Source of the DNA: an uncultured Gemmatimonadota bacterium
GTDB taxonomy: Bacteria; Gemmatimonadota; Gemmatimonadetes; Palauibacterales; Palauibacteraceae
DNA length: 64,000 nucleotides
Direction of reading: 5' to 3'
Assembly: GCA_964509895.1 (NCBI GenBank)
Contig: CAZDZJ010000132.1
Coordinates: forward strand, 18,269-82,268
The notes beneath the pieces were generated by a model, which worked only from the letters and a program-made list of their open reading frames with translations, was not told the origin of the DNA and made no database searches. Made by a program: the position numbers and the translations under genes. This document shows, in pieces, positions 47,167-56,933 of this stretch. Within the stretch, counting starts at the first letter, position 1. Each line of letters begins with the position of its first letter.

Positions 47167-47633
47167 CGGACCACGTCCTTGTAGGGGTCTTTCTTCTGCA
47201 TGAAGAGCCGCTCACGCACGACGGAGACGAAGAGGACAACGAGGCCGGCGATCAGCACGAGCATGCCCCAGCGAACGTAGACGGGCATCGTCGTGTCCCG
47301 GATCAACTCGCTGACGGCCATCCACAGGGTCCAGGTTCCGACCGTGATCGCGCCCAGCGAGATCAGGACCCAGCCGATGCCGCGCTCGAGTCGGCGATAC
47401 ACGTGTTCCCAGTAGCTGTCCCACGTCTCTTCCGGGGGTTTCAGGGGACTCATGGTATCGGTGACCTCCTTAAGGCGGTGGTACGTCCGCAGCTCGTCGC
47501 GCAGATCCGGGTTGTTCTGGAGCGCCGACTCGAGTTCGGCGCGTCCCTCTCCCGAAATCTCCCGGTCCACCTCGGCCATCATGAGTTGGCGCACCCGGTC
47601 GTCGCCGGGCGGGTTCGGCTTCCTCTCAGTCAT
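47163..47633 (-). CDS. Putative membrane-anchored anti-sigma factor
   Basis: It lies immediately downstream of the ECF sigma gene and overlaps it. An N-terminal helical cytoplasmic region is followed by two TM helices. There is no HxxxCxxC zinc motif. The ATG at 47633 is preferred over the GTG at 47642. Confidence 0.5.
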   Translation of the reverse strand: MTERKPNPPGDDRVRQLMMAEVDREISGEGRAELESALQNNPDLRDELRTYHRLKEVTDTMSPLKPPEETWDSYWEHVYRRLERGIGWVLISLGAITVGTWTLWMAVSELIRDTTMPVYVRWGMLVLIAGLVVLFVSVVRERLFMQKKDPYKDVVR

Positions 47634-48201
47634 CGCCCGCACCTCCCTCCCGGACGGGCCCCACTCTCGCCGTTTCGATCTCGCTGGCCAGAGACCGCCG
47701 CGCCCGGTAGAGGCGCGACATCACCGTGCCGATGGGGATTCCCAGCAACTCGGCGATCTCCCTGTATCGCAATCCCTCGAACTCGCGCAGGACGAGCGTC
47801 TCCCGCTCCCGCTCCGCAAGACGTTCGATGGCCGCGCCGACCTGTTCTCGCAGCTCGGAGCGCTCCGCCGCCTGATCGGGGGCGAGAGGGCGCCGGCCCA
47901 TCGTCGTGTCGCCAAGCCAGCTTCCCGCTCTCTCCAGCTTGAGGCGGCGGGAGCGCTGGTCCCGCGTATGGTTGAAACAGAGTCGTCGGATGATCTGGTA
48001 CAGCCAGGGGAAGAAGGGTCGCTCGGCATCGATCGTGGCCCGCGCCCGAAATGCCCTGGCGAAGGCCTCCTGTGAGAGATCCAGTGCGTCGTCGTGGTTC
48101 CCGACCAGTCCGAGCGCGGTATAGTAGGCACGCTGCATGTATCGTGTGACGAGTTCGCCGAAGGCCGCACGCTCGCCGCGCTGCGCGCGAAGCACGAGCA
48201 T
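47626..48201 (-). CDS. ECF (group 4) sigma-70 factor
   Basis: Region 2 is DALDLSQEAFARAF...FFPWLYQI. Region 4 is YREIAELLGIPIGTVMSRLYRAR. The start is ATG at 48201, or possibly the in-frame TTG at 48228. Confidence 0.85.
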   Translation of the reverse strand: MLVLRAQRGERAAFGELVTRYMQRAYYTALGLVGNHDDALDLSQEAFARAFRARATIDAERPFFPWLYQIIRRLCFNHTRDQRSRRLKLERAGSWLGDTTMGRRPLAPDQAAERSELREQVGAAIERLAERERETLVLREFEGLRYREIAELLGIPIGTVMSRLYRARRSLASEIETARVGPVREGGAGDD

Positions 48202-48342
48202 GCGGTCGGTTGCCTCCGAGCTGTTCAATTGCGGCTCCCATTGTCGCGGACACCCCGTGACGGCCTGTTTGCCAACGCGCGGGTTACACGGAGCCGCGAC
48301 CTTTATTCCCGGCAGTCCGGGATCAACGAATCGAGACAAAGA

Positions 48343-48807
48343 ATGAGCGAGTTCCCGGTCGGAGCAAGCCTGCAGCCCGAGATCGTTCCCTCCCGCTGGA
48401 CGCTGATCCGGGATGTGGCGGTCTTCCAGCTCAAGCTGCTCCTCGATGGTTTGAGGGATGCGTTGCTGGTGCCGATCTCGCTCTTCATCGCCGCGCTCGA
48501 CCTGCTCGGCGTGGGCCCTCGGGCGGGTCGGCAGTTCTACCACCTGCTGGAGTGGGGGCGCCGGACGGAGTACTGGATCAACCTGTTCGGCGCCACCGAT
48601 CATGTTCGCGCTCTGGCGTCGTCTCCGCGGCCGGGCGTCGATACGCTCGTCGACCGCCTCGAACGCCTGGTGGTGCAGGAGTACGAGCGGGGCGGGATCA
48701 CGGCCTCGACGAAGGACGCCGTGGACCGAGCCCTCGATGGCCTTACGAGGCGCGAGCCCTCCGGCGGGAGTCCGTCCGGCCGGGATCCCTCCGGACCATC
48801 GCCGTGA
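48343..48807 (+). CDS. Hypothetical membrane protein
   Basis: ATG at 48343. It has one or two hydrophobic helices (VAVFQLKLLLDGLRDALLVPISLFIAALDLLG). No family was recognised. Its 3' end overlaps the convergent his fusion ORF by 65 nt. Confidence 0.4.
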   Translation: MSEFPVGASLQPEIVPSRWTLIRDVAVFQLKLLLDGLRDALLVPISLFIAALDLLGVGPRAGRQFYHLLEWGRRTEYWINLFGATDHVRALASSPRPGVDTLVDRLERLVVQEYERGGITASTKDAVDRALDGLTRREPSGGSPSGRDPSGPSP

Positions 48808-51379
48808 GCCGGCGTTCAGCGGAGCGCGCGTGCGCCTCCAGGCCCTCCAGTCTGGCGAGCGCGGCCGTGTCGCGGAGCAGGTCCTCGTAGCCGTCCTCTT
48901 CCGGCGAGAGCGACAGCCACGTCGGACGGCGCAGGAACGAGAACACCGAGAGTCCCGAGTCGAACGCGGCCGCGCCGGACGTGGGGAGCGTGTGGTTGGG
49001 TCCGGCTCCGTAGTCTCCGGCGGCCTCGGGCGTGGCCGAGCCCAGGAAGAGCGATCCGTAGCGGCCAAGGCGGGGAGCGAGCGACTCGGCCCGATCGCCG
49101 TGCAGGTGCAGGTGTTCCGGCGCCACGGCGTTGCAGATGGCGGCGGCCTCGTCGGGGCTGGCCGCGAGGAGGGCGCCGCCGGCCGCCAGGGCCCGGCGCG
49201 CGATCGGTGCGGTCGGCAGCGCGGCCAGCTGCCGCCCGGCCTCTTCGCGGACGGCCTCGACGGTCGCTTCGTCGAAGGCGCACAGGAGCGGGACGGCGTC
49301 CGGGTCGTGCTCCGCCTGGGCGAGCAGGTCGGCCGCGACGCGCGCCGGCTCGGCATCCGGCGAGGCGACGACGAGCAGCTCGGAGGGGCCGGCGATGGTG
49401 TCGAGGCCGACCCGGCCGTAGAGGAGCCGCTTCGCCGCGGTGACGAAGCGGTTGCCGGGCCCCACGATCTTCTCGCAGCGCGGGACCCCGCCCACGCCGA
49501 ACGCGAGTGCGGCGATCGCCTGCGCCCCGCCCGCGGCGAGCAGGCCGTCCGCGCCGGCGATCAGCGCCGCGGCCTGTACGACCGGCGTCGGCCGAGGTGA
49601 GGCGACCCAGACCGAGGCGGCCCCCGCGACGCGCGCCGGAAGGGCCGTCATGAGGACCGAAGAGGGAAGCGGGAACCGTCCCCCCGGTGTGTAGCACCCC
49701 ACGCTCTCCAGCGGCACGAGCCGATGTCCGGCACGCCCGGCCGGGACGGGCGTGTCGAGTGCCGCGGCCGAGGCGAGCTGCGCCTCGGCGAAGGTTCGGA
49801 TCCGCCCCGAGACGCGTTCGAGCAGGTCGCGAGCCTCCTGGTCGATCTTATCGGCGGCCCGGGCGAGGGCCGCCCGGTCGAGCAGCAGGTTTGCGCCGGG
49901 CGGCAGATCGTCGAGGCGCGCCGCGTGTTCGCGAAGGGCCGTCTCTCCCCGCCGCTCGACGTCCTCGAGGATCGAGCGGGCGATCTCGAGCGCCTCCGGG
50001 TCGAGCGCCGGCCGGCGCACGGCCCGCACGGCTTCGTCGAGACCGATGGCCGGCAGGATGCAACCCGGCGGCGGGTCGCCCGCCGCGGCCGCCCGCCCGG
50101 TCGGCATCGCCGGCGGACGGCGGGGCGCGCGACGCCGAACCTTGAGCGCCCTCCGCGCAAGTTCGCCCCTCACGTCCGCGAGCGACCCGCCGGCTTCCAG
50201 CAGCCGCGTGAGGGCGAAGTAGCAGAGATCGGCGAATTCGGACACCGCCTCGTCCCTCGACGCGGCCGCCGCGAGCTCGCCGGCCTCCTCGACGAGCTTC
50301 CCCTGCAACAAGTCGGGTTCCCGAACGAGGCGCGCCGTCAGCGATCCGGGCTCCGCGTCGGCGATTCGCTCGCGAAGCCGCGCTTCGAGATCGGAGAGCC
50401 CCATCGTCGTCGGCGACGTCTCGGAATCGAAGCAACCCGCCGCGCCCGTGTGGCAGAAGCCGGAGCCGTGCTGCCGCACCGTGAAACGCAGCGTGTCCCG
50501 GTCACAGTCGAGCGCCACCCGCAGGAGTTCCTGTGTGGCGCCCGAGGATTCCCCCTTGCGCCACAACCCCCGCGAGCGGCTCCGGTAGATGCCGCGCCGT
50601 TCCTCGACGGCGGCCCGCAGGCTCTCCGGGCTCGACCACGCGAGGCCGAGGGCACGGCCGGCCTCATCCTCCACCAGCGTTGCCCACAACCTGTCGGGCC
50701 GGTCCGACGTCAGTGGGGCCGCGATGGCATCGCCCAGGTCCATGCGTCCGCTGTAGATCGCCATCCCCACCTGCGCGTCCGCTCCCAGCCGGTCGAGGGC
50801 CGCGACCTCCGAGGCGTCGCGGACGCCGCCGGCCACCGTGATCCGAGCCGCCCCCGCGGCGGTGACGAGCGCCGGAACGCGGTCCAGCGGGAGCCCTCCC
50901 AGCGTGCCCTCGACTTCGACGAACGTGACCAGGTAGCCTCCTGCCAGGCCATCGAGTTCCCGCATCCGCTCGGCGACGCCGCGGCCCGTCCCGCGGCGCC
51001 AGCCCTCGACGACGATCTCCCCGTCGCGCGCGTCGAGGGCCGCGATGACTCGATCGGGCGGGAGTCCGGTCAAGACGCCGGGATTGGCCGCCGTGCCCAG
51101 AATCACGCGCCGCGCCCCGGCGTCGAGCCAGTCGAGCGCGGCTTCCCGTGACCGGATGCCGCCGCCGACGCGGCAGGGCGCGAGCGCCAGCAGTTCACGG
51201 ATGACGGCGGCGTTGTCGCCCCGCCCCAGCGCCGCGTCGAGATCGATGACCGCGATCTCGCCCGCCACCGCGAACCTCTCCGCCAGCGGCCGTGGATCCC
51301 CCGCGTCGATCTCCAGCGTCGCGCCCTGGCGCAACTGCACGGCGCGGCCGCCCATGAGGTCGATCGATGGAACGATCAT
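48743..51379 (-). CDS. hisA-hisIE-hisD: Single ORF fusing HisA (ProFAR isomerase), HisI (PR-AMP cyclohydrolase), HisE (PR-ATP pyrophosphatase) and HisD (histidinol dehydrogenase) domains, 878 aa
   Basis: One uninterrupted frame carries all four domains. HisA spans aa 1-222 (MIVPSIDLMGGRAVQLRQG...VAGGVRD...GMAIYSG). HisI spans about aa 228-318 (YRSRSRGLWRKGESSG...LDCDRD...CHTG). HisE spans about aa 326-412 (LEARLRER...LVEEAGELA...EFADLCYF). An Arg/Pro/Ala linker follows. HisD spans about aa 441-878 (GCYTPGG, GGAQAIAALAFG, IVGPGNRFV, IAGPSE, AQAEHD, APEHL, GDYGAGPNHTLPT). The ATG overlaps the hisF stop (ATGA). Confidence 0.8.
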   Translation of the reverse strand: MIVPSIDLMGGRAVQLRQGATLEIDAGDPRPLAERFAVAGEIAVIDLDAALGRGDNAAVIRELLALAPCRVGGGIRSREAALDWLDAGARRVILGTAANPGVLTGLPPDRVIAALDARDGEIVVEGWRRGTGRGVAERMRELDGLAGGYLVTFVEVEGTLGGLPLDRVPALVTAAGAARITVAGGVRDASEVAALDRLGADAQVGMAIYSGRMDLGDAIAAPLTSDRPDRLWATLVEDEAGRALGLAWSSPESLRAAVEERRGIYRSRSRGLWRKGESSGATQELLRVALDCDRDTLRFTVRQHGSGFCHTGAAGCFDSETSPTTMGLSDLEARLRERIADAEPGSLTARLVREPDLLQGKLVEEAGELAAAASRDEAVSEFADLCYFALTRLLEAGGSLADVRGELARRALKVRRRAPRRPPAMPTGRAAAAGDPPPGCILPAIGLDEAVRAVRRPALDPEALEIARSILEDVERRGETALREHAARLDDLPPGANLLLDRAALARAADKIDQEARDLLERVSGRIRTFAEAQLASAAALDTPVPAGRAGHRLVPLESVGCYTPGGRFPLPSSVLMTALPARVAGAASVWVASPRPTPVVQAAALIAGADGLLAAGGAQAIAALAFGVGGVPRCEKIVGPGNRFVTAAKRLLYGRVGLDTIAGPSELLVVASPDAEPARVAADLLAQAEHDPDAVPLLCAFDEATVEAVREEAGRQLAALPTAPIARRALAAGGALLAASPDEAAAICNAVAPEHLHLHGDRAESLAPRLGRYGSLFLGSATPEAAGDYGAGPNHTLPTSGAAAFDSGLSVFSFLRRPTWLSLSPEEDGYEDLLRDTAALARLEGLEAHARSAERRLTAMVRRDPGRTDSRRRARAS

Positions 51380-52143
51380 CGCCGCACCGCCACGCCAAGC
51401 TGCTGCAGACGATCCTTGAGCCGGCCGATCGACCATTCTTCCTGATGGAATATGGATGCCGCCAACACGGCGTCGGCCCCCGCCCCGACCGCCGCGCACA
51501 TGTGTCCCGGATGGGCTCCACCCCCGGAGGCGACGATGGGTACCGGAACGGCGCCGCGAATCGCCGCGATCAGATCCAGGTCATAGCCGCTCCGCGTCCC
51601 GTCGCGGTCGAAGCTCGTGAGGAGGATCTCGCCCGCGCCCAGCTCCACCGCGCCGCGCGCCCAGTCCGCCGCGTCCCGTCCCGTGCGCTTCCGGCCGGAG
51701 TGCGTGAGCACCTCGAAGCCGCTGGGGCACTCGTCGGCCGGGGTGCCGGTCGCGTCCAGCGCCAGCACGGCGCACTGGGCGCCGAAGCGCATCGAGATCT
51801 CCTCCAGCAGGGAGGGCCGCTCGACGGCGGCGGTGTTCACCGCCACCCGGTCGGCCCCCGCCTCCAGCAGGGCGCCCGCGTCTTCCACCGTACGCACGCC
51901 GCCCCCGACGGTGAGCGGAATCGATATCTCGTCGCGGACCCGGCCGATCGTGCCGGCCCGGGCCAGCCGCCCGTCCTCGGTGGCCGACACGTCGAGGATC
52001 ACGATCTCGTCGGCGCCCTCCCGCTCGTAGCGCCGCGCGAGCCGCGCCGGCTCCCCCTGGTCCGCGAGATTCGCGAACCGGATCCCCTTGACGACCCGCC
52101 CGTCCTTCACGTCGAGGCACGGGATCACGCGTACATTCAACAT
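51376..52143 (-). CDS. hisF: Imidazole glycerol phosphate synthase cyclase subunit
   Basis: Motifs MLNVRVIPCLDVKDGRVVKG, TVGGGV, DRDGT and ASGG. Confidence 0.9.
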   Translation of the reverse strand: MLNVRVIPCLDVKDGRVVKGIRFANLADQGEPARLARRYEREGADEIVILDVSATEDGRLARAGTIGRVRDEISIPLTVGGGVRTVEDAGALLEAGADRVAVNTAAVERPSLLEEISMRFGAQCAVLALDATGTPADECPSGFEVLTHSGRKRTGRDAADWARGAVELGAGEILLTSFDRDGTRSGYDLDLIAAIRGAVPVPIVASGGGAHPGHMCAAVGAGADAVLAASIFHQEEWSIGRLKDRLQQLGVAVRR

Positions 52144-52820
52144 GCCGCGGCGACCCTCAAGGGCACCGGGGGCCTCTCGCGGCCGGCGGCCGCACTCGGG
52201 GCCAGTTCGAGCCATCGGGTCAGGAGCGCCGCGCCGACTCGCCCGGACAACTCCGGGTGGAACTGGCAGGCCAGTACGCCGGCCCGCTCGATCCCCGCCA
52301 CAAAGCGGGCCCCGTGCCGGCTCAGAGCCGCAGACCAGCCGTTCGGTGTAGCGGCGAGCCCATAGGAGTTGGCGAAGTAGACGATGCCCGGCCGGAGGAA
52401 GACGGTGCCCGCGGGAGCCGACAGCCGGTTCCAGCCAAGTTGCGGGACCCGTCCCGCCCCTTCGAGCCGGACCACTCGACCCGGCACGCAGCCGAGACCC
52501 GGGACTCCCGGCGCCTCGTCGCTTGCCTCGCACAGGAGCTGCAGGCCCAGGCAGATGCCCAGCGTCGGCCGGCCCGCCTCCACTCGCCGGCGGATCGCCT
52601 CCACCCATCCCCTGCGCCGAAGTTCGGCCATGCCTCCGGCGAAGGATCCCACGCCGGGCAGCACGACAAAATCCGCCCCCGCGATCCCGGCTGCGGAATC
52701 CAGCAGTCGGGGCGTCCTGCCCAGTCGCCGGAACGCCGCGGCCACTGCCTCGATGTTCGCCAATCCCGTCGGGACGATGCCCACCTCGTCCGGCCGCCTC
52801 ACGACGCGCGCGGCGCTCAT
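52137..52820 (-). CDS. hisH: Imidazole glycerol phosphate synthase glutamine amidotransferase subunit
   Basis: Motifs LPGVGSF, the catalytic GICLGLQLL, and QFHPE. The ATG at 52820 overlaps the hisB stop (ATGA). Confidence 0.85.
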   Translation of the reverse strand: MSAARVVRRPDEVGIVPTGLANIEAVAAAFRRLGRTPRLLDSAAGIAGADFVVLPGVGSFAGGMAELRRRGWVEAIRRRVEAGRPTLGICLGLQLLCEASDEAPGVPGLGCVPGRVVRLEGAGRVPQLGWNRLSAPAGTVFLRPGIVYFANSYGLAATPNGWSAALSRHGARFVAGIERAGVLACQFHPELSGRVGAALLTRWLELAPSAAAGRERPPVPLRVAAAC

Positions 52821-53506
52821 CGGGCCGCCGCTTCGAGGGCGCAATCCCTCGAATCCTCCTTGCCGGCGAGGTCAGGGGGGGCGTCCGACTCGAGGACCCC
52901 CTTCGTACTGGGAATTCCGCCCGCGGCCCGCCGGGAGACCGCCTCTCCGAGCGCGAGCCCGAACGACTTGAAGGCCGCCTCCGCCCGGTGGTGGTCGTTG
53001 TCGCCCCGCAGCACGTCGAGGTGAAGCGTCAGACGGGCCGACGTTGCGAGCGACGTGAAGAAATGCGCCAGGTTCTCGGTGGCCACGCTGCCCAGCATCT
53101 CCCGCCGGAGACCCAGATCCACGGTGGCGGAGGGGCGGCCCGACAGATCCACGACGGCCCTCGCGAGCGCCTCGTCGAGCGGCGCGTAGGCGTAGCCGAA
53201 GCGGCGGATTCCGCTCCTCTCGCCGAGCGCGTCCCGAATCGCGGAGCCGAGAACGATCGCGCAGTCCTCCACCGTGTGGTGGTCGTCGACTTCGAGATCG
53301 CCGCGCGCGCACAGATCCAGCGTCATCCCGCCGTGGAAGGCCGCGGCCCCGATCATGTGGTCCAGAAAGGGCAACCCGGTCTCGACCTGACTCGGTCCTC
53401 GCCGGTCGAGATCGAGTCGTGCCTCGATCGCGGTCTCGAGCGTCCGCCGGGATCTCCTGCCCGTGCGGTTGCCGTCCGGTGAAGGATTCCTCGTGTGGCT
53501 ACCCAT
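52817..53506 (-). CDS. hisB: Imidazoleglycerol-phosphate dehydratase (dehydratase domain only)
   Basis: Motifs FLDHM, DDHHTVED, NDHHRAEAAFK and STKGVL. There is no N-terminal histidinol-phosphatase domain. ATG at 53506. Confidence 0.9.
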   Translation of the reverse strand: MGSHTRNPSPDGNRTGRRSRRTLETAIEARLDLDRRGPSQVETGLPFLDHMIGAAAFHGGMTLDLCARGDLEVDDHHTVEDCAIVLGSAIRDALGERSGIRRFGYAYAPLDEALARAVVDLSGRPSATVDLGLRREMLGSVATENLAHFFTSLATSARLTLHLDVLRGDNDHHRAEAAFKSFGLALGEAVSRRAAGGIPSTKGVLESDAPPDLAGKEDSRDCALEAAAR

Positions 53507-54545
53507 CGGTCTTCTCTCCGCAAGGTTCGTCAAGGGTCGGGCCAAGTGTCGTATCGAGTACGGCGAGCACGCGGCGGAAGGTCGCCTCGTCCCCGGGAAG
53601 CGTGATCCGGATGAGCTCCGGGCGGTTCGGGAAGCGCCGCACGGCGATCCCGGCGCGTCGGAACCCCTGGTGCAACGCGCCCGACCGGTCGCTGGCGGCG
53701 AGCACGAAGTTCGCCTCGGAGGCGAATGGGTCGGCGCCCCATGCCTGCAGCGCGGCGCACAGCCGGCTGCGTTCGCCGCGGACGGCCGCCACGTGCGCCT
53801 GGGTGATGCGGTCGCCCAGCGAGAGCGCCCGCTCCGCGAGCCAGATGGACGGGCCCGACAGCGGGAAGGGTGGCCCGGAGGTCCGGAGGGCATCGATGGC
53901 CGGGCGCGCTCCCAGGACGCACCCGACCCGAAGCCCCGCGAGCCCCCACGCCTTCGAGAGCGTCCGCACGACGAGGACGTTGTCCCGCTCCAGCAGGGCC
54001 CGGGTGGGATCGGAATCCGCGTACTCCACATACGCGAGGTCGGCGAGGAGCAGGGCCCCACCCGGCAGGTGCTCGGCAATCTCGAGCATGCGGAACGCGG
54101 GGACGACCCGGCCGGTGGGGTTGTGCGGCGAGATCACCGTCACGAGTCCGGTCCGCTCGCCGAGCCGCCCGAGGATCGGCGCCAGGGGCGCGGGGTCCCG
54201 AAGCGTGGGGATCTGGCGCACGCGTCCGCGCGCCAACCCGGCGAAGTGCGGCATCATCTCGAACGTCGGCGCCACCGTGATCATGTCCCGCCCGCCCGCG
54301 AGCTGGAGGCGACAGATGCGGTCGATCGCATCGTCCGCTCCCGCGGTGACGAGGACGCGGCCCGGCTCGAGGCCCCAGAGATCGGCCAGTTGCCGCTCCA
54401 GACCCGAAGCATCCGGGTACCGCGTCAGGGTCGTCGCCGGAACCCGGGCGAGAAGGGGCGCGAGTCCGGGCGCCGGGAAGAGACGCTCGTTGCGGTCGAG
54501 CCTCAGCAGCTCACCCGGCGCCGCCGCCACCGCTACGGTGTTCAC
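53499..54545 (-). CDS. hisC: Histidinol-phosphate aminotransferase
   Basis: Motifs LDRNE, YPD, NPTG, and the PLP-lysine motif TLSKAWGLAGLRVG. The gene sits inside the his operon. Confidence 0.85.
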   Translation of the reverse strand: MNTVAVAAAPGELLRLDRNERLFPAPGLAPLLARVPATTLTRYPDASGLERQLADLWGLEPGRVLVTAGADDAIDRICRLQLAGGRDMITVAPTFEMMPHFAGLARGRVRQIPTLRDPAPLAPILGRLGERTGLVTVISPHNPTGRVVPAFRMLEIAEHLPGGALLLADLAYVEYADSDPTRALLERDNVLVVRTLSKAWGLAGLRVGCVLGARPAIDALRTSGPPFPLSGPSIWLAERALSLGDRITQAHVAAVRGERSRLCAALQAWGADPFASEANFVLAASDRSGALHQGFRRAGIAVRRFPNRPELIRITLPGDEATFRRVLAVLDTTLGPTLDEPCGEKTDG

Positions 54546-55405
54546 GCGACGATCTGCCCCGGCGCGGTCACGACGAGGTCCGTGCCGCCTCGCGCCTTCA
54601 CCAGTGGAATCAGCGTCGGCAGCGCCTCGCGAAGCACCGCGACGCGAATCGCGTACCCCCCGTCTTCGTGCAGACGCGACACGGTGGGTTTGCGCATGCA
54701 GGGAAGGACCGACACCAGCTCGTCCAGACGTCCGGAGTCCACATTGACTTCGAGCATCACGCGCCTGCGGGCCTCGAGGACCGATTCCAGTACCAGCACG
54801 AGGTCGGCGATCCGGTCTCGGTGGGGCGGCGTCTCGAGGGCCCGCGGATTCGCGTAGAGGCGGGTCGACGAGGTCATGAGTTCGTCCACCACCTCGAGTC
54901 CGTTGGCCTCCAGCGTTGCGCCCGTCGCGGTGTTGTCGACGATCACGTCGGCGTCTTCGGGCGGGAACACCTCGGTCGCCCCGTACGAGCGGACGAGCGT
55001 CGCGTCCAGTCGGCGCCCGTCGATCCAGCGCGACGCCAGCCGGCGGTATTCCGAGGCGACCGTGAGGGGGCGTACGGTCTCGAGGCCGGCTACCGCCAGC
55101 GGCGCCGGGGCGGCCGCGACGACCCGCACCGGGTCGAGTTCGGTGTCGAGCAGTTCGACGAGCGATCCGTCAAGCTCCGCCACCCAGTCGGCCCCCGCGA
55201 ACCCGAGATCGCGCGAGCCCGCGTGGAGCATCTCCACCACGTTCTGCGGCTTGAGCAGCTTGGCGGTGAATCGCGGGACCGAAACGGCCGGGCGGTAGCG
55301 GCGCTCCCCCAGGTCGACGCGCACGCCGGCGGCGGTCAGCAACTCGAGTACGCCCGCCTGCATGCGGCCCTTCGGCAGAGCCAGTCTGGTGTCGTCGTGG
55401 GTCAT
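54542..55405 (-). CDS. hisG: ATP phosphoribosyltransferase, long form with C-terminal regulatory domain
   Basis: ATG at 55405. Motifs LALPKGR, DLGFAGADW and DNTATGATLEANGL. The C-terminal roughly 80 aa form an ACT-like domain (VMLEVNV...). Confidence 0.9.
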   Translation of the reverse strand: MTHDDTRLALPKGRMQAGVLELLTAAGVRVDLGERRYRPAVSVPRFTAKLLKPQNVVEMLHAGSRDLGFAGADWVAELDGSLVELLDTELDPVRVVAAAPAPLAVAGLETVRPLTVASEYRRLASRWIDGRRLDATLVRSYGATEVFPPEDADVIVDNTATGATLEANGLEVVDELMTSSTRLYANPRALETPPHRDRIADLVLVLESVLEARRRVMLEVNVDSGRLDELVSVLPCMRKPTVSRLHEDGGYAIRVAVLREALPTLIPLVKARGGTDLVVTAPGQIVA

Positions 55406-55444
55406 GTCGGCTCTCGGTGCCGACACCGGAGGGGGGAGGCGGCG

Positions 55445-55472
55445 AAAAAAAAGCCGGCCACCCCGGGCCGGC
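55445..55472 (-). terminator. Intrinsic terminator in the his operon 5' leader (attenuator terminator)
   Basis: The minus strand reads GCCGGCC-CGGGGT-GGCCGGC followed by TTTTTTTT. That is a 7-bp GC stem, a 6-nt loop and a U8 tract, ending 39 nt upstream of the hisG ATG. No minus-strand gene lies upstream that it could terminate. Confidence 0.65.
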
Positions 55473-55513
55473 ATCGATCGTTCGCAACCTCTGTTCAGAA
55501 AATGGCTAGACGA

Positions 55514-55579
55514 TCACCGGCCTCCGCTCTCGCGGTGGTAGTAGTAATAGTGGCCGAAAAAGGAATGCCGGTTCGTCAT
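55514..55579 (-). CDS. Candidate 21-codon leader peptide MTNRHSFFGHYYYYHRESGGR
   Basis: The sequence is ATG ACG AAC CGG CAT TCC TTT TTC GGC CAC TAT TAC TAC TAC CAC CGC GAG AGC GGA GGC CGG TGA. It is an AT-rich codon run in a GC-rich genome, 41 nt upstream of the terminator. Its 3' end (GGCCGGTGATCG) is complementary to CGATCGATGCCGGCC, which includes the terminator's 5' arm. Confidence 0.5.
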   Translation of the reverse strand: MTNRHSFFGHYYYYHRESGGR

Positions 55580-55747
55580 AGGGCGCGGAGGTTGGCACCC
55601 TGTCGCCTGCTTGTCAAGGTCGTATGCTTGTCGCTCCCGGTCTGGCCATACTCGCGTCCCCGATCCGACCGTGCTCGAACAGCCGAGACACTTCCGGACG
55701 GACGCCGTCGCCGGACCCCCGAACTCACTTCGGCCCTGGACGCGAGA

Positions 55748-56749
55748 ATGACCGATTCCCCGGCCCGGCCCGGCCGGACCCCGACGCCCGAGTCGAGCAG
55801 GGAAACGCGGGCGCGGATCGACCCCTGGATCGAACGGACGCCCGTGCGAAGGTGGATCCCCGACCGGGGTGTGGTGTCGCTTCCGGAAGGGTCCGAACTC
55901 TTCCTCAAGCTCGAGTTGTTCCAGCGCACCGGCTCCTACAAGGTGCGGGGGGCTCTCAACAACGTCCTCGCCGCGGATGCTGAAACGCTGCGGCGCGGGG
56001 TTACGGCCGTGAGCGCCGGGAACCATGCCATCTCCGTGGCCTATGCCGCGCAGTCCGTGGGCACCACGGCGAAGGTCGTCATGCTTTCCTCCGCCAACCC
56101 GGCACGCGTCGCGCGCTGCCGGAACTTCGGGGCGGAGATCGAGTTCGCCGACGATGGCGCGCGCGGATTCGAACGCATGGAGGAGATCGCCCGCGCGGAG
56201 GGGCGGCTGACGATCCATCCCTTCGAAGGTGAAGCCACGGTGCTCGGGACCTCGACCGTAGGCCTCGAGGTCGCGGAGCAACTTCCCGATCTCGACGCGC
56301 TCGTTGTCCCCATCGGGGGCGGAGGACTCATCTCCGGCACTTCGAGCATCGTGAAACAGCTCGCGCCCGCGTGCCGCGTCTACGGGGTGGAACCGGTGGG
56401 TGCCGACTCCATGCGGCGGAGCCTCGACGCGGGCGAGCCGGTGGCGCTCGACCGTATCGATACGATTGCGGACAGCCTCGGAGCCCCCCATGCGGCGCCT
56501 TACAGCTTCGGGCTCGTCCGGCGGTACGTGGACGATGTCGTGCTCGTTGACGATGACGCGATCCGCGGCGCGATGCGGGCCCTCTTCCTCGACGCGAAAC
56601 TGGTCGCCGAGCCCGCCTCCGCCGCCCCGCTCGCCGCGGCATGCGGTCCGCTCCGAGAGCGGCTGGCCGGGCTGCGCGCAGGTCTCGTCCTGTCCGGTTC
56701 CAACATCGACCTCGACACCTTCGCGGCACACATCCGGGCGGGCGGCTGA
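55748..56749 (+). CDS. PLP-dependent threonine/serine dehydratase (threonine ammonia-lyase-like, no regulatory domain)
   Basis: ATG at 55748. The PLP-lysine motif is TGSYKVRGA; other motifs are SAGNHA, GGGGLISG and SGSNID. Confidence 0.85.
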   Translation: MTDSPARPGRTPTPESSRETRARIDPWIERTPVRRWIPDRGVVSLPEGSELFLKLELFQRTGSYKVRGALNNVLAADAETLRRGVTAVSAGNHAISVAYAAQSVGTTAKVVMLSSANPARVARCRNFGAEIEFADDGARGFERMEEIARAEGRLTIHPFEGEATVLGTSTVGLEVAEQLPDLDALVVPIGGGGLISGTSSIVKQLAPACRVYGVEPVGADSMRRSLDAGEPVALDRIDTIADSLGAPHAAPYSFGLVRRYVDDVVLVDDDAIRGAMRALFLDAKLVAEPASAAPLAAACGPLRERLAGLRAGLVLSGSNIDLDTFAAHIRAGG

Positions 56750-56933
56750 TGCCCCGCCTCCGCGTCGGCCTGACCCGGGCCCGCCCGCGCGGCCGGCGGG
56801 GGCGTCGTCCGGGGGCCGATGCGGCGGCGTTCGAATGGCCGCGCTATTTCCGCGGCACTACACTGGAATCAGGTGCCCCGGCACTCCTGCCCGGGCCGGC
56901 CGTCCCTGGTCTTGCCATGAAGGAGGGAACGGA

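Follow-up and report, generated by a model that had tools for sequence, protein, structure and literature searches.

We analysed a 64,000-nt stretch of the genome of an uncultured Gemmatimonadota bacterium (contig CAZDZJ010000132.1, positions 18,269 to 82,268; hereafter the window), on whose minus strand one open reading frame (ORF) carries the domains of four histidine-biosynthesis enzymes. Sequence comparison makes it very probable that this frame, hisA-I-E-D, is a genuine gene whose product is a single ~93-kDa polypeptide, HisA-HisI-HisE-HisD, that it closes an operon whose genes are translationally coupled, and that it is one of several cases in which hisD has been joined in frame recurrently. 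The nearest known kin of the protein are bacterial HisA-I-E proteins, the Acanthamoeba and protist giant fusions, and fungal HIS4.

The frame runs on the minus strand from an ATG at 51379 to a TAA at 48745-48743 and comprises 878 codons without interruption. Its longest version would begin at a GTG at 51499 and encode 918 aa, the extra part lying inside hisF; ATG 51379 is the predicted true start, because it overlaps the hisF stop codon as ATGA and because M1 and the N-terminus ‘MI(I/V)PSIDL’ (‘MIIPSIDL’ in the window) are near-invariant among 69 homologues. Local DNA is ~75% G+C (74–78% across the region), and long spurious ORFs are common in such DNA. Even at 75% G+C, the four domain matches lie far beyond chance, because all of them exceed the Pfam gathering scores (23.6 bits for PF00977, 27 for PF01502, 21.3 for PF01503 and 27 for PF00815; observed scores in Table 1). 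Both the 878-aa open frame from 51379 to 48743 and the domain order HisA-HisI-HisE-HisD, first proposed in a sequence-only reading of the window, are upheld by the ORF reading of the minus strand and by the Pfam scan of the translation. A homology search of the whole window found no second hisA, hisI, hisE or hisD.

Against the more specific NCBIfam models, the HisD part passes TIGR00069 (393.4 versus a cut-off of 243.8) and the HisE part passes TIGR03188 (49.3 versus 42.7). The former score, together with PDB matches that are best for HisD, led us to reject an HpsN-type dehydrogenase identity for the C-terminal domain. It is highly implausible that this domain is a same-fold paralogue (a sulfopropanediol/DHPS dehydrogenase) and not histidinol dehydrogenase: solved HpsN-type enzymes do score only moderately lower than true HisD (223–246 versus 243–290 bits), but the his operon is complete without another hisD, and in relatives with split genes the equivalent gene is the sole hisD of the operon.

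Every domain appears to keep its own active-site motifs and is predicted to fold as an independent unit. An AlphaFold2 model built on the alignment of 69 homologues has a mean predicted local distance difference test score (pLDDT) of 90.3, with values below 50 only at residues 422-435 and 867-878. In this model the HisA part (residues 1-221, pLDDT ~95) shows the (beta-alpha)8 fold, with eight barrel strands alternating with helices, and D7 (beta-1) and D116 (beta-5) align with the Asp residues of PriA/HisA structures. The metal-binding motifs of HisI (DCDxD and C...CH...C) and the acidic motifs of HisE (EExxE and ExxD) are kept, align with structures 6j22 and 1zps, and are invariant in 73 of 73 family members. 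Likewise, the HisD motifs QAEHD, APEHL, GDY..NHTLPT and EAHARSAE align with solved HisD structures and are invariant or nearly so in the 69 homologues; the alignment with HisD structures stops at about residue 858, and the tail beyond is unconserved.

To place the protein among its relatives, we searched 5.8 billion proteins and considered the best 120 clusters listed; the full set of four Pfam domains is present in 118 of them. The nearest cluster is 98% identical to the window protein, followed by clusters at 87–89% and then by ~40 at 78–83%; those that are named belong to Gemmatimonadota, chiefly Candidatus Palauibacter (order Palauibacterales), and further fused proteins at 50–60% identity come from Phycisphaerales, Myxococcota/‘Deltaproteobacteria’ and others. 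The source databases label these proteins only ‘histidinol dehydrogenase’ or, at the Joint Genome Institute, ‘histidinol dehydrogenase/phosphoribosyl-ATP pyrophosphohydrolase’. The sequence-only reading had called for such a search and had cautioned that the architecture might already be widespread; it is, occurring in at least 118 protein clusters and in many bacterial phyla.

The same clusters bear on whether the single frame could have been created by an error of sequencing or assembly, with an indel of one base hiding the overlap between a hisA-IE stop and a hisD start in what are really two genes. Most related genomes do hold separate genes with an overlap of only 4 nt, so that a single indel error would mimic the fusion, and the region is highly G+C-rich (74–78%). 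Nevertheless, ~45 independent clusters at 78–98% identity, from differing samples, assemblers and sources, are all fused, at 859–884 aa, several of them on contigs of 3.7–4.1 Mb; this database evidence speaks for the continuous frame that the sequence-only reading had wanted checked in an independent assembly. In addition, the sequence linking HisE to HisD is conserved within the window's clade, down to relatives at 62–67% identity, as the motif RRRAPR.PP..PTGR, and the linker of the window itself retains no remnant of an ATGA junction. An artefact is therefore very improbable here.

We further examined 80 species-representative bacterial loci by means of stop-to-stop ORFs and BLASTP. All four domains lie in one ORF at 12 of these loci, which belong to Palauibacter-like Gemmatimonadota, Phycisphaerales (two), Krumholzibacteriia (one), Polyangia (one), ‘delta/proteobacteria’ (two), Gemmatimonadales (one) and Planctomycetales (two). 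At ~61 of the 80, a hisA-I-E ORF corresponding to query residues 1 to ~417 ends with a stop and a separate hisD follows immediately; other Gemmatimonadota are of this split type. When the HisA domain alone served as the query of an exhaustive HMMER search, the same picture emerged: HisA-I-E proteins of 400–430 aa make up most of the 131 closest representative clusters (E <= 1e-30), alongside a few proteins of ~860 aa and a few very long eukaryotic ones, and standalone HisA of ~235 aa appears only at 44% identity or less. The three-domain hisA-I-E gene thus appears to be the older and commoner unit, and the fused hisD a lineage-specific, recurrent addition.

The surrounding operon, too, is conserved in related loci. 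Its order in the window is hisG-C-B-H-F-(A-I-E-D), with successive junction overlaps of 4 (GTGA), 8, 4 (ATGA), 7 (or 4) and 4 (ATGA) nt; this order, supported by Pfam hits and related loci, and overlaps of 4–8 nt at all junctions agree with what the sequence-only reading had described. Its description of the operon as rearranged did not hold, as the order G-C-B-H-F-A-IE-D recurs in at least 47 of the 80 related loci, most of the others being cut by contig ends. The operon type was seen in Gemmatimonadota, Planctomycetota, Myxococcota, Acidobacteriota, Armatimonadota, Krumholzibacteriia, Methylomirabilota and others, and by this comparison it is a common type and not a local rearrangement.

How the two genes may have become one can be read from the split loci. 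In 38 of them the hisD start overlaps the hisA-I-E stop by 4 nt, in the form ATGA or GTGA, and a GGAGG-like motif often precedes it; the linker of the window protein sits at the site of this overlap. In five loci the two genes share a reading frame and only one stop lies between them (TGA in three, TAG and TAA in one each), the hisD start lying 3–96 nt downstream (Table 1); a single point mutation or stop-codon read-through at these five loci would yield a four-domain protein. On a rough neighbour-joining (NJ) tree of the A-IE region, fused proteins are interspersed with split ones at six or seven positions, and their similarity to split proteins equals or exceeds that to the fused proteins of other lineages (the fused protein of locus L006 shares 75% identity with a split relative and 66% with its nearest fused one). 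The linkers of other fused lineages are not homologous to that of the window, ranging from 24 to 90 residues and differing in sequence. Because these linkers are unrelated, repeated and independent fusion by small indels offers a simpler reading than repeated fission of one ancient fusion.

As a side observation from the same tree, the A-IE region of the window and Palauibacter (with L001-L003) lies near Phycisphaerae and apart from split-type Gemmatimonadota (comparison with L049-L073), a placement that hints at horizontal operon transfer on a tree without support values. Acquisition of the operon by Palauibacter from Planctomycetota-like donors was considered on this basis and is not claimed, the unsupported NJ tree not being solid.

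The Arg/Pro/Ala-rich linker that the sequence-only reading had placed between HisE and HisD was recovered at residues ~415-445, of which 422-435 are predicted to be disordered. Such a linker raises the question of whether the cell, despite the single frame, mainly uses separate proteins, produced either by internal initiation of HisD within the linker or by linker proteolysis. The linker is disordered and exposed, contains a Met at residue 423 in the window, and occupies the place of the internal hisD start of the ancestral state. However, Met423 is not conserved in the closest relatives (G, L or S takes its place in L001, L002, P0002 and P0007), the linker of the clade shows no evident conserved start codon or Shine-Dalgarno-like motif, and both fungal HIS4 and the Acanthamoeba gene show that single large products are possible. 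We regard separate products as unlikely, and prefer one continuous polypeptide.

Several points weigh against a recurrently formed, four-enzyme fusion gene and were considered together. The gene product is known here from sequence and model, and the view of the genome spans 64 kb, so that separate copies of hisA, hisIE or hisD may exist beyond the window. With a predicted template modelling score (pTM) of 0.54, the model defines the single domains well and their mutual arrangement poorly. The HisA part falls under the NCBIfam equivalog cut-offs (139.7 versus 243 for TIGR00007 and 130.6 versus 228.95 for NF010112), as does the HisIE part (110.2 versus 187 for NF002747), and because of these scores we consider both parts to be probable divergent subtypes. 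In HisA strand beta-6, residues 152-162 (50900-50935, minus strand) read T-F-V-E-V-E-G-T-L versus T-D-(I/V)-x-x-D-G-T-L in canonical HisA/PriA, and the canonical catalytic Asp, D176 in S. enterica, is replaced by Glu157 (‘FVEVEGT’). As to recurrence, polyphyly of the fusion rests on a star-like NJ tree without support values, pairwise identities and linker dissimilarity; repeated fission from a single ancient fusion is the alternative, and some singleton fused genes in metagenome-assembled genomes (MAGs) of other lineages could be frameshift errors.

The deviations in HisA are the main argument for supposing that one domain, the divergent HisA being the likeliest, is a non-catalytic relic whose true enzyme is encoded elsewhere in the genome, all the more as only 64 kb are in view and the N-terminal barrel of fungal HIS4 (see below) would be an example of such decay. 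Yet across 73 family members, which span many phyla, D7, D116 and E157 never vary and E155 is kept in 72, and GGGIR and the phosphate-binding glycines are likewise invariant or nearly so in 69–73 sequences; this indicates strong purifying selection on the active site. Moreover, there is no other hisA in the operon or window, and protist fusions, which must supply HisA activity, carry the same FVExEG motif. We thus judge a relic quite unlikely. Because Glu is invariant in 73 of 73, the Asp-to-Glu157 change appears to be conservative and subtype-specific. The whole HisA-I-E family shares T-F-V-E-x-E-G-x-L-x-G in beta-6, and eukaryotic HIS6 has a similar ‘DVEG’. The HisA domain would accordingly represent a conserved subtype under purifying selection and not a decaying one, its ProFAR isomerase activity being suggested by conservation only.

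We propose the following course of events for the fusion. The start state would be the widespread, old hisA-I-E gene with hisD next to it and an ATGA/GTGA overlap; a frame-restoring small indel or the loss of a stop would then join the two frames, and the former junction would become a flexible, disordered linker. This would have occurred independently in several lineages, that of the window included. The resulting polypeptide would supply HisE (step 2), HisI (step 3), HisA (step 4) and HisD (the last two oxidations), five catalytic steps in all, and the fusion may turn translational coupling into a covalent 1:1 stoichiometry. HisD and HisIE are dimers in solved structures, and for this reason the A-I-E-D protein is probably homodimeric. 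The A-I-E part is tight, its short connector bearing a conserved ‘SDRPD.L’ motif; more speculatively, the proximity of HisE, HisI and HisA could favour hand-over of the intermediates of steps 2–4. Since the substrate of HisD arises five steps later, its attachment brings no obvious channelling benefit and may best be read as a mutationally easy event, near-neutral or mildly useful.

Table 1 Coordinates of hisA-I-E-D, its parts and neighbouring features in the window, and of stop codons between same-frame genes in related loci
Feature	Coordinates	Strand	Details
hisA-I-E-D coding sequence	48743..51379	-	878 aa + stop; open frame, four Pfam domains, AlphaFold2 mean pLDDT 90.3
HisA (ProFAR isomerase) domain, residues 1-221	50717..51379	-	PF00977 His_biosynth, residues 1-213, 124 bits
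HisI (PR-AMP cyclohydrolase) domain, residues ~229-322	50414..50695	-	PF01502 PRA-CH, residues 246-317, 81 bits
HisE (PR-ATP pyrophosphohydrolase) domain, residues ~326-414	50138..50404	-	PF01503 PRA-PH, residues 329-410, 46 bits
E-D linker, residues ~415-445	50045..50137	-	Arg/Pro/Ala-rich; pLDDT <50 at 422-435
HisD (histidinol dehydrogenase) domain, residues ~446-858	48806..50044	-	PF00815 Histidinol_dh, residues 462-858, 409.5 bits, E 2e-122
C-terminal tail, residues 859-878 + stop	48743..48805	-	Unconserved; overlaps convergent gene
hisF	51376..52143	-	PF00977, 238 bits; stop overlaps hisA-I-E-D start as ATGA
hisH	52137..52820	-	Position and homology conserved across related loci; overlaps hisB by 4 nt and hisF by 7 nt
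hisB	52817..53506	-	229 aa; only IGPD domain, PF00475, residues 43-186; start overlaps hisC stop by 8 nt
hisC	53499..54545	-	348 aa; PF00155; without the C-terminal HAD domain of many related operons
hisG	54542..55405	-	Long form with C-terminal regulatory domain; PF01634 + PF08029
Terminator-like hairpin upstream of hisG	55445..55472	-	7 G-C pairs (GCCGGCC...GGCCGGC), then T8
Convergent hypothetical gene	48346..48807	+	153 aa, ATG 48346 most likely start; no Pfam family
ECF (extracytoplasmic function) sigma factor gene	47626..48201	-	Sigma70_r2 + Sigma70_r4_2; separate downstream transcription unit
Same-frame single-stop sites	L005:6344-6346, L008:7572-7574, L009:9998-10000, L015:9995-9997, L065:9321-9323		Stop between hisA-I-E and hisD

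At the upstream end of the operon, the start of hisG is most likely ATG 55405 (MTHDDTRLALPKGR), which gives 287 aa, and not 55474, because a strong terminator-like hairpin occupies 55472-55445. This hairpin falls within the 5′ end of the longest hisG ORF, and its T-run lies ~40 nt from ATG 55405. A scan of 47500-56800 for sigma-70 promoters found none, and shuffled sequence contained terminator-like sites just as often, so that the hairpin at 55472 is the single notable one; Rfam, applied to the entire window with gathering thresholds, produced no match and hence no recognised his leader or riboswitch. Directly upstream of hisG (55514-56731, minus strand) lies a 405-aa ORF without a Pfam family, whose Tyr/His-rich tail, GHYYYYHRESGGR, ends just before the hairpin. 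A His-codon leader peptide or attenuator upstream of hisG was considered and rejected, ‘GHYYYYHR’ being the C-terminus of this ORF.

Downstream, the 3′ end of the convergent hypothetical gene overlaps the hisA-I-E-D tail by 65 nt (48743-48807), tail to tail, precisely as noted in the sequence-only reading. Both this gene and the ECF sigma factor gene are conserved in the nearest relatives (L001-L003), the convergent gene again on the opposite strand downstream of hisD; because the extent of the overlap varies among these relatives, it looks incidental. The two genes diverge from an intergenic region of ~145 nt, and the stop of the ECF sigma factor gene overlaps the next ATG (ATGA at ~47633-47630), which suggests a coupled anti-sigma gene.

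One activity of the pathway is not accounted for by the operon in the window. The HisB encoded here was described in the sequence-only reading as devoid of a phosphatase domain, and Pfam indeed shows IGPD only. In many related operons (loci L004, L012, L015, L020, L023, L061 and L075; e.g., L012:5742-6803) the hisC frame runs on into a C-terminal HAD domain (PF00702/PF13419; ‘FDMDGVLADV...VTGRPR...KPDP...GDTPDD’). This domain is a candidate histidinol-phosphate phosphatase, and its fusion partner is the aminotransferase from which it would receive its substrate. The hisC genes of the window and of its Palauibacter relatives have no HAD domain, and tblastn found no HAD homologue in the 64-kb window with an E-value better than 0.2. 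Pfam scans of ten flanking ORFs gave no phosphatase candidate, PHP and IMPase types not having been sought window-wide. The earlier suggestion that the histidinol-phosphatase is probably encoded elsewhere still stands.

Compared with known systems, the A-I-E part of the window protein is of the same family as bacterial HisA-HisI-HisE proteins, with the same motifs and the same place in the operon between hisF and hisD; those proteins end after HisE, at ~400–430 aa, with a separate and usually ATGA-overlapping hisD, whereas in the window hisD is fused in frame. The classical bifunctional HisIE of E. coli and Salmonella has the same I-E order and catalytic motifs but lacks both HisA and HisD and derives from the hisGDC(NB)HAFIE operon, ordered G-D-C-B-H-A-F-IE, and the IE part of the window falls under the HisIE equivalog cut-off.

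Papers of the Fani group list five his fusions (hisA/hisF elongation, hisIE, hisHF, hisNB and hisIED/HIS4), state that seven genes of the pathway (D, N, B, H, F, I and E) were involved in fusions, and do not name hisA as the partner of a different gene. Bacterial three-domain HisA-HisI-HisE proteins are mentioned in one sentence by Witek et al., and a 2024 survey noted four archaeal MAGs with HisA/F-HisIE fusions. We found no paper that describes the HisA-IE-D protein of bacteria, in keeping with the sequence-only reading, whose author knew of none.

Eukaryotes offer parallels in domain order. The A-I-E-D block of the window protein, with its domains ordered alike, recurs inside the heptafunctional Acanthamoeba protein (1682 aa, HisH/F-HisA-HisI-HisE-HisD-HisG; Rice et al. 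2018, PMC6029752). That protein has HisH/F and HisG fused as well, whereas hisG, hisH, hisF and hisC in the window are separate, overlapping cistrons and the window protein, a bacterial one, comprises just the four domains. Among eukaryotic transcriptome proteins, P0112 (1351 aa) has the order H-F-A-I-E-D, and P0108 (1501 aa) and P0156 (1586 aa) the order A-I-E-D-C-HAD. Such protist proteins are 47–49% identical to the window protein (over the full length; for P0156, over the HisA domain) and share its FVExEG HisA motif, and the modules that they have in addition (H-F upstream, C-HAD) correspond to neighbouring genes in the bacterial operon type.

The ‘trifunctional’ fungal protein HIS4 (S. 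cerevisiae YCL030C) shares with the window protein the I-E-D order, a variable or disordered linker before HisD, the motif ‘DRPD(G/R)L’ before HisI and an ‘LKV.RR.GDAKP’-type end of HisE. BLASTP of window residues 179-861 against residues 100-791 of yeast HIS4 gave one collinear high-scoring segment pair (35% identity, E 3e-125) that starts near ‘DRPD(G/R)L’. The N-terminus of HIS4 has neither recognisable HisA sequence nor the beta-1 catalytic Asp, whereas the window protein has an intact-looking, conserved HisA; by these comparisons the window protein would be a sister architecture to HIS4 and not a HIS4 member. In yeast, HisA comes from a separate gene, HIS6.

In the textbook account (Fani 2007), HIS4 is a fungal-specific fusion of hisIE with hisD, and its N-terminal region before HisI was found to have no conserved domain or PSI-BLAST match (Fani et al. 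2007). We compared this region, as the N-terminal 117–210 residues of fungal proteins P0269-P0388 (S. cerevisiae P0269 being 100% identical to the bait), with the HisA family. Profile–profile alignment by hhalign gave scores of 26.5–30.8 (P ~1e-3), always over HisA beta-3 to beta-5, a signal that is weak but reproducible, collinear and specific; decoys reached at most 21.0 in 40 trials and 18.1 in 60, reversed profiles 8.5 and the HisF family 16–17. An AlphaFold2 model of Komagataella HIS4 residues 1-191 (P0369; alignment of 26 sequences) has a pLDDT of 93.9 and a pTM of 0.89, with eight strands and eight helices alternating. Foldseek matched it to TIM barrels in the PDB, Salmonella HisA being the best natural match (ranks 2–8, E ~1e-4, TM 0.58–0.64), with IMPDH, DERA, TrpC and HisF ranking behind it.

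A relationship to HisA is opposed by the small margins over other ribulose-phosphate-binding barrels in the Foldseek ranking, by the missing beta-1 Asp, and by a Pfam scan of 26 HIS4 N-terminal regions that gave no HisA/HisF match at E <= 10. Without a Pfam match, the link to HIS4 therefore rests on fold, position and a weak profile–profile signal and not on ordinary homology. Our hypothesis, for which we see moderate support, is that the HIS4 N-terminal region may be a dead HisA-like barrel and HIS4 a decayed A-I-E-D protein. More tentatively, and with the balance tipping slightly the other way, the bacterial hisG-C(HAD)-B-H-F-(A-I-E)-D operon might be the source of eukaryotic multi-enzyme his genes, with protist H-F-A-I-E-D(-G) and A-I-E-D-C-HAD as ‘frozen’ pieces of it and HIS4 as its decayed A-I-E-D. 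If true, this would revise the account of HIS4 as a fungal-specific fusion of hisIE and hisD and would explain the N-terminal domain of yeast HIS4.

Histidine biosynthesis is a classic model of gene fusion and operon compaction in pathway evolution, and the locus described here is a member of a large bacterial family with hisA fused to hisIE that has been overlooked and is absent from the five-fusion list of reviews. Within it the process of fusion appears to be visible, from ATGA coupling to covalent fusion with a disordered linker, both states persisting in related genomes. The finding also exposes an annotation gap: hundreds of such proteins are named only ‘histidinol dehydrogenase’, and HisA, HisI and HisE may therefore wrongly be called missing when the pathway is reconstructed for Gemmatimonadota, Planctomycetota, Myxococcota and others. 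Finally, the family would provide a plausible prokaryotic origin for the giant histidine enzymes of eukaryotes.

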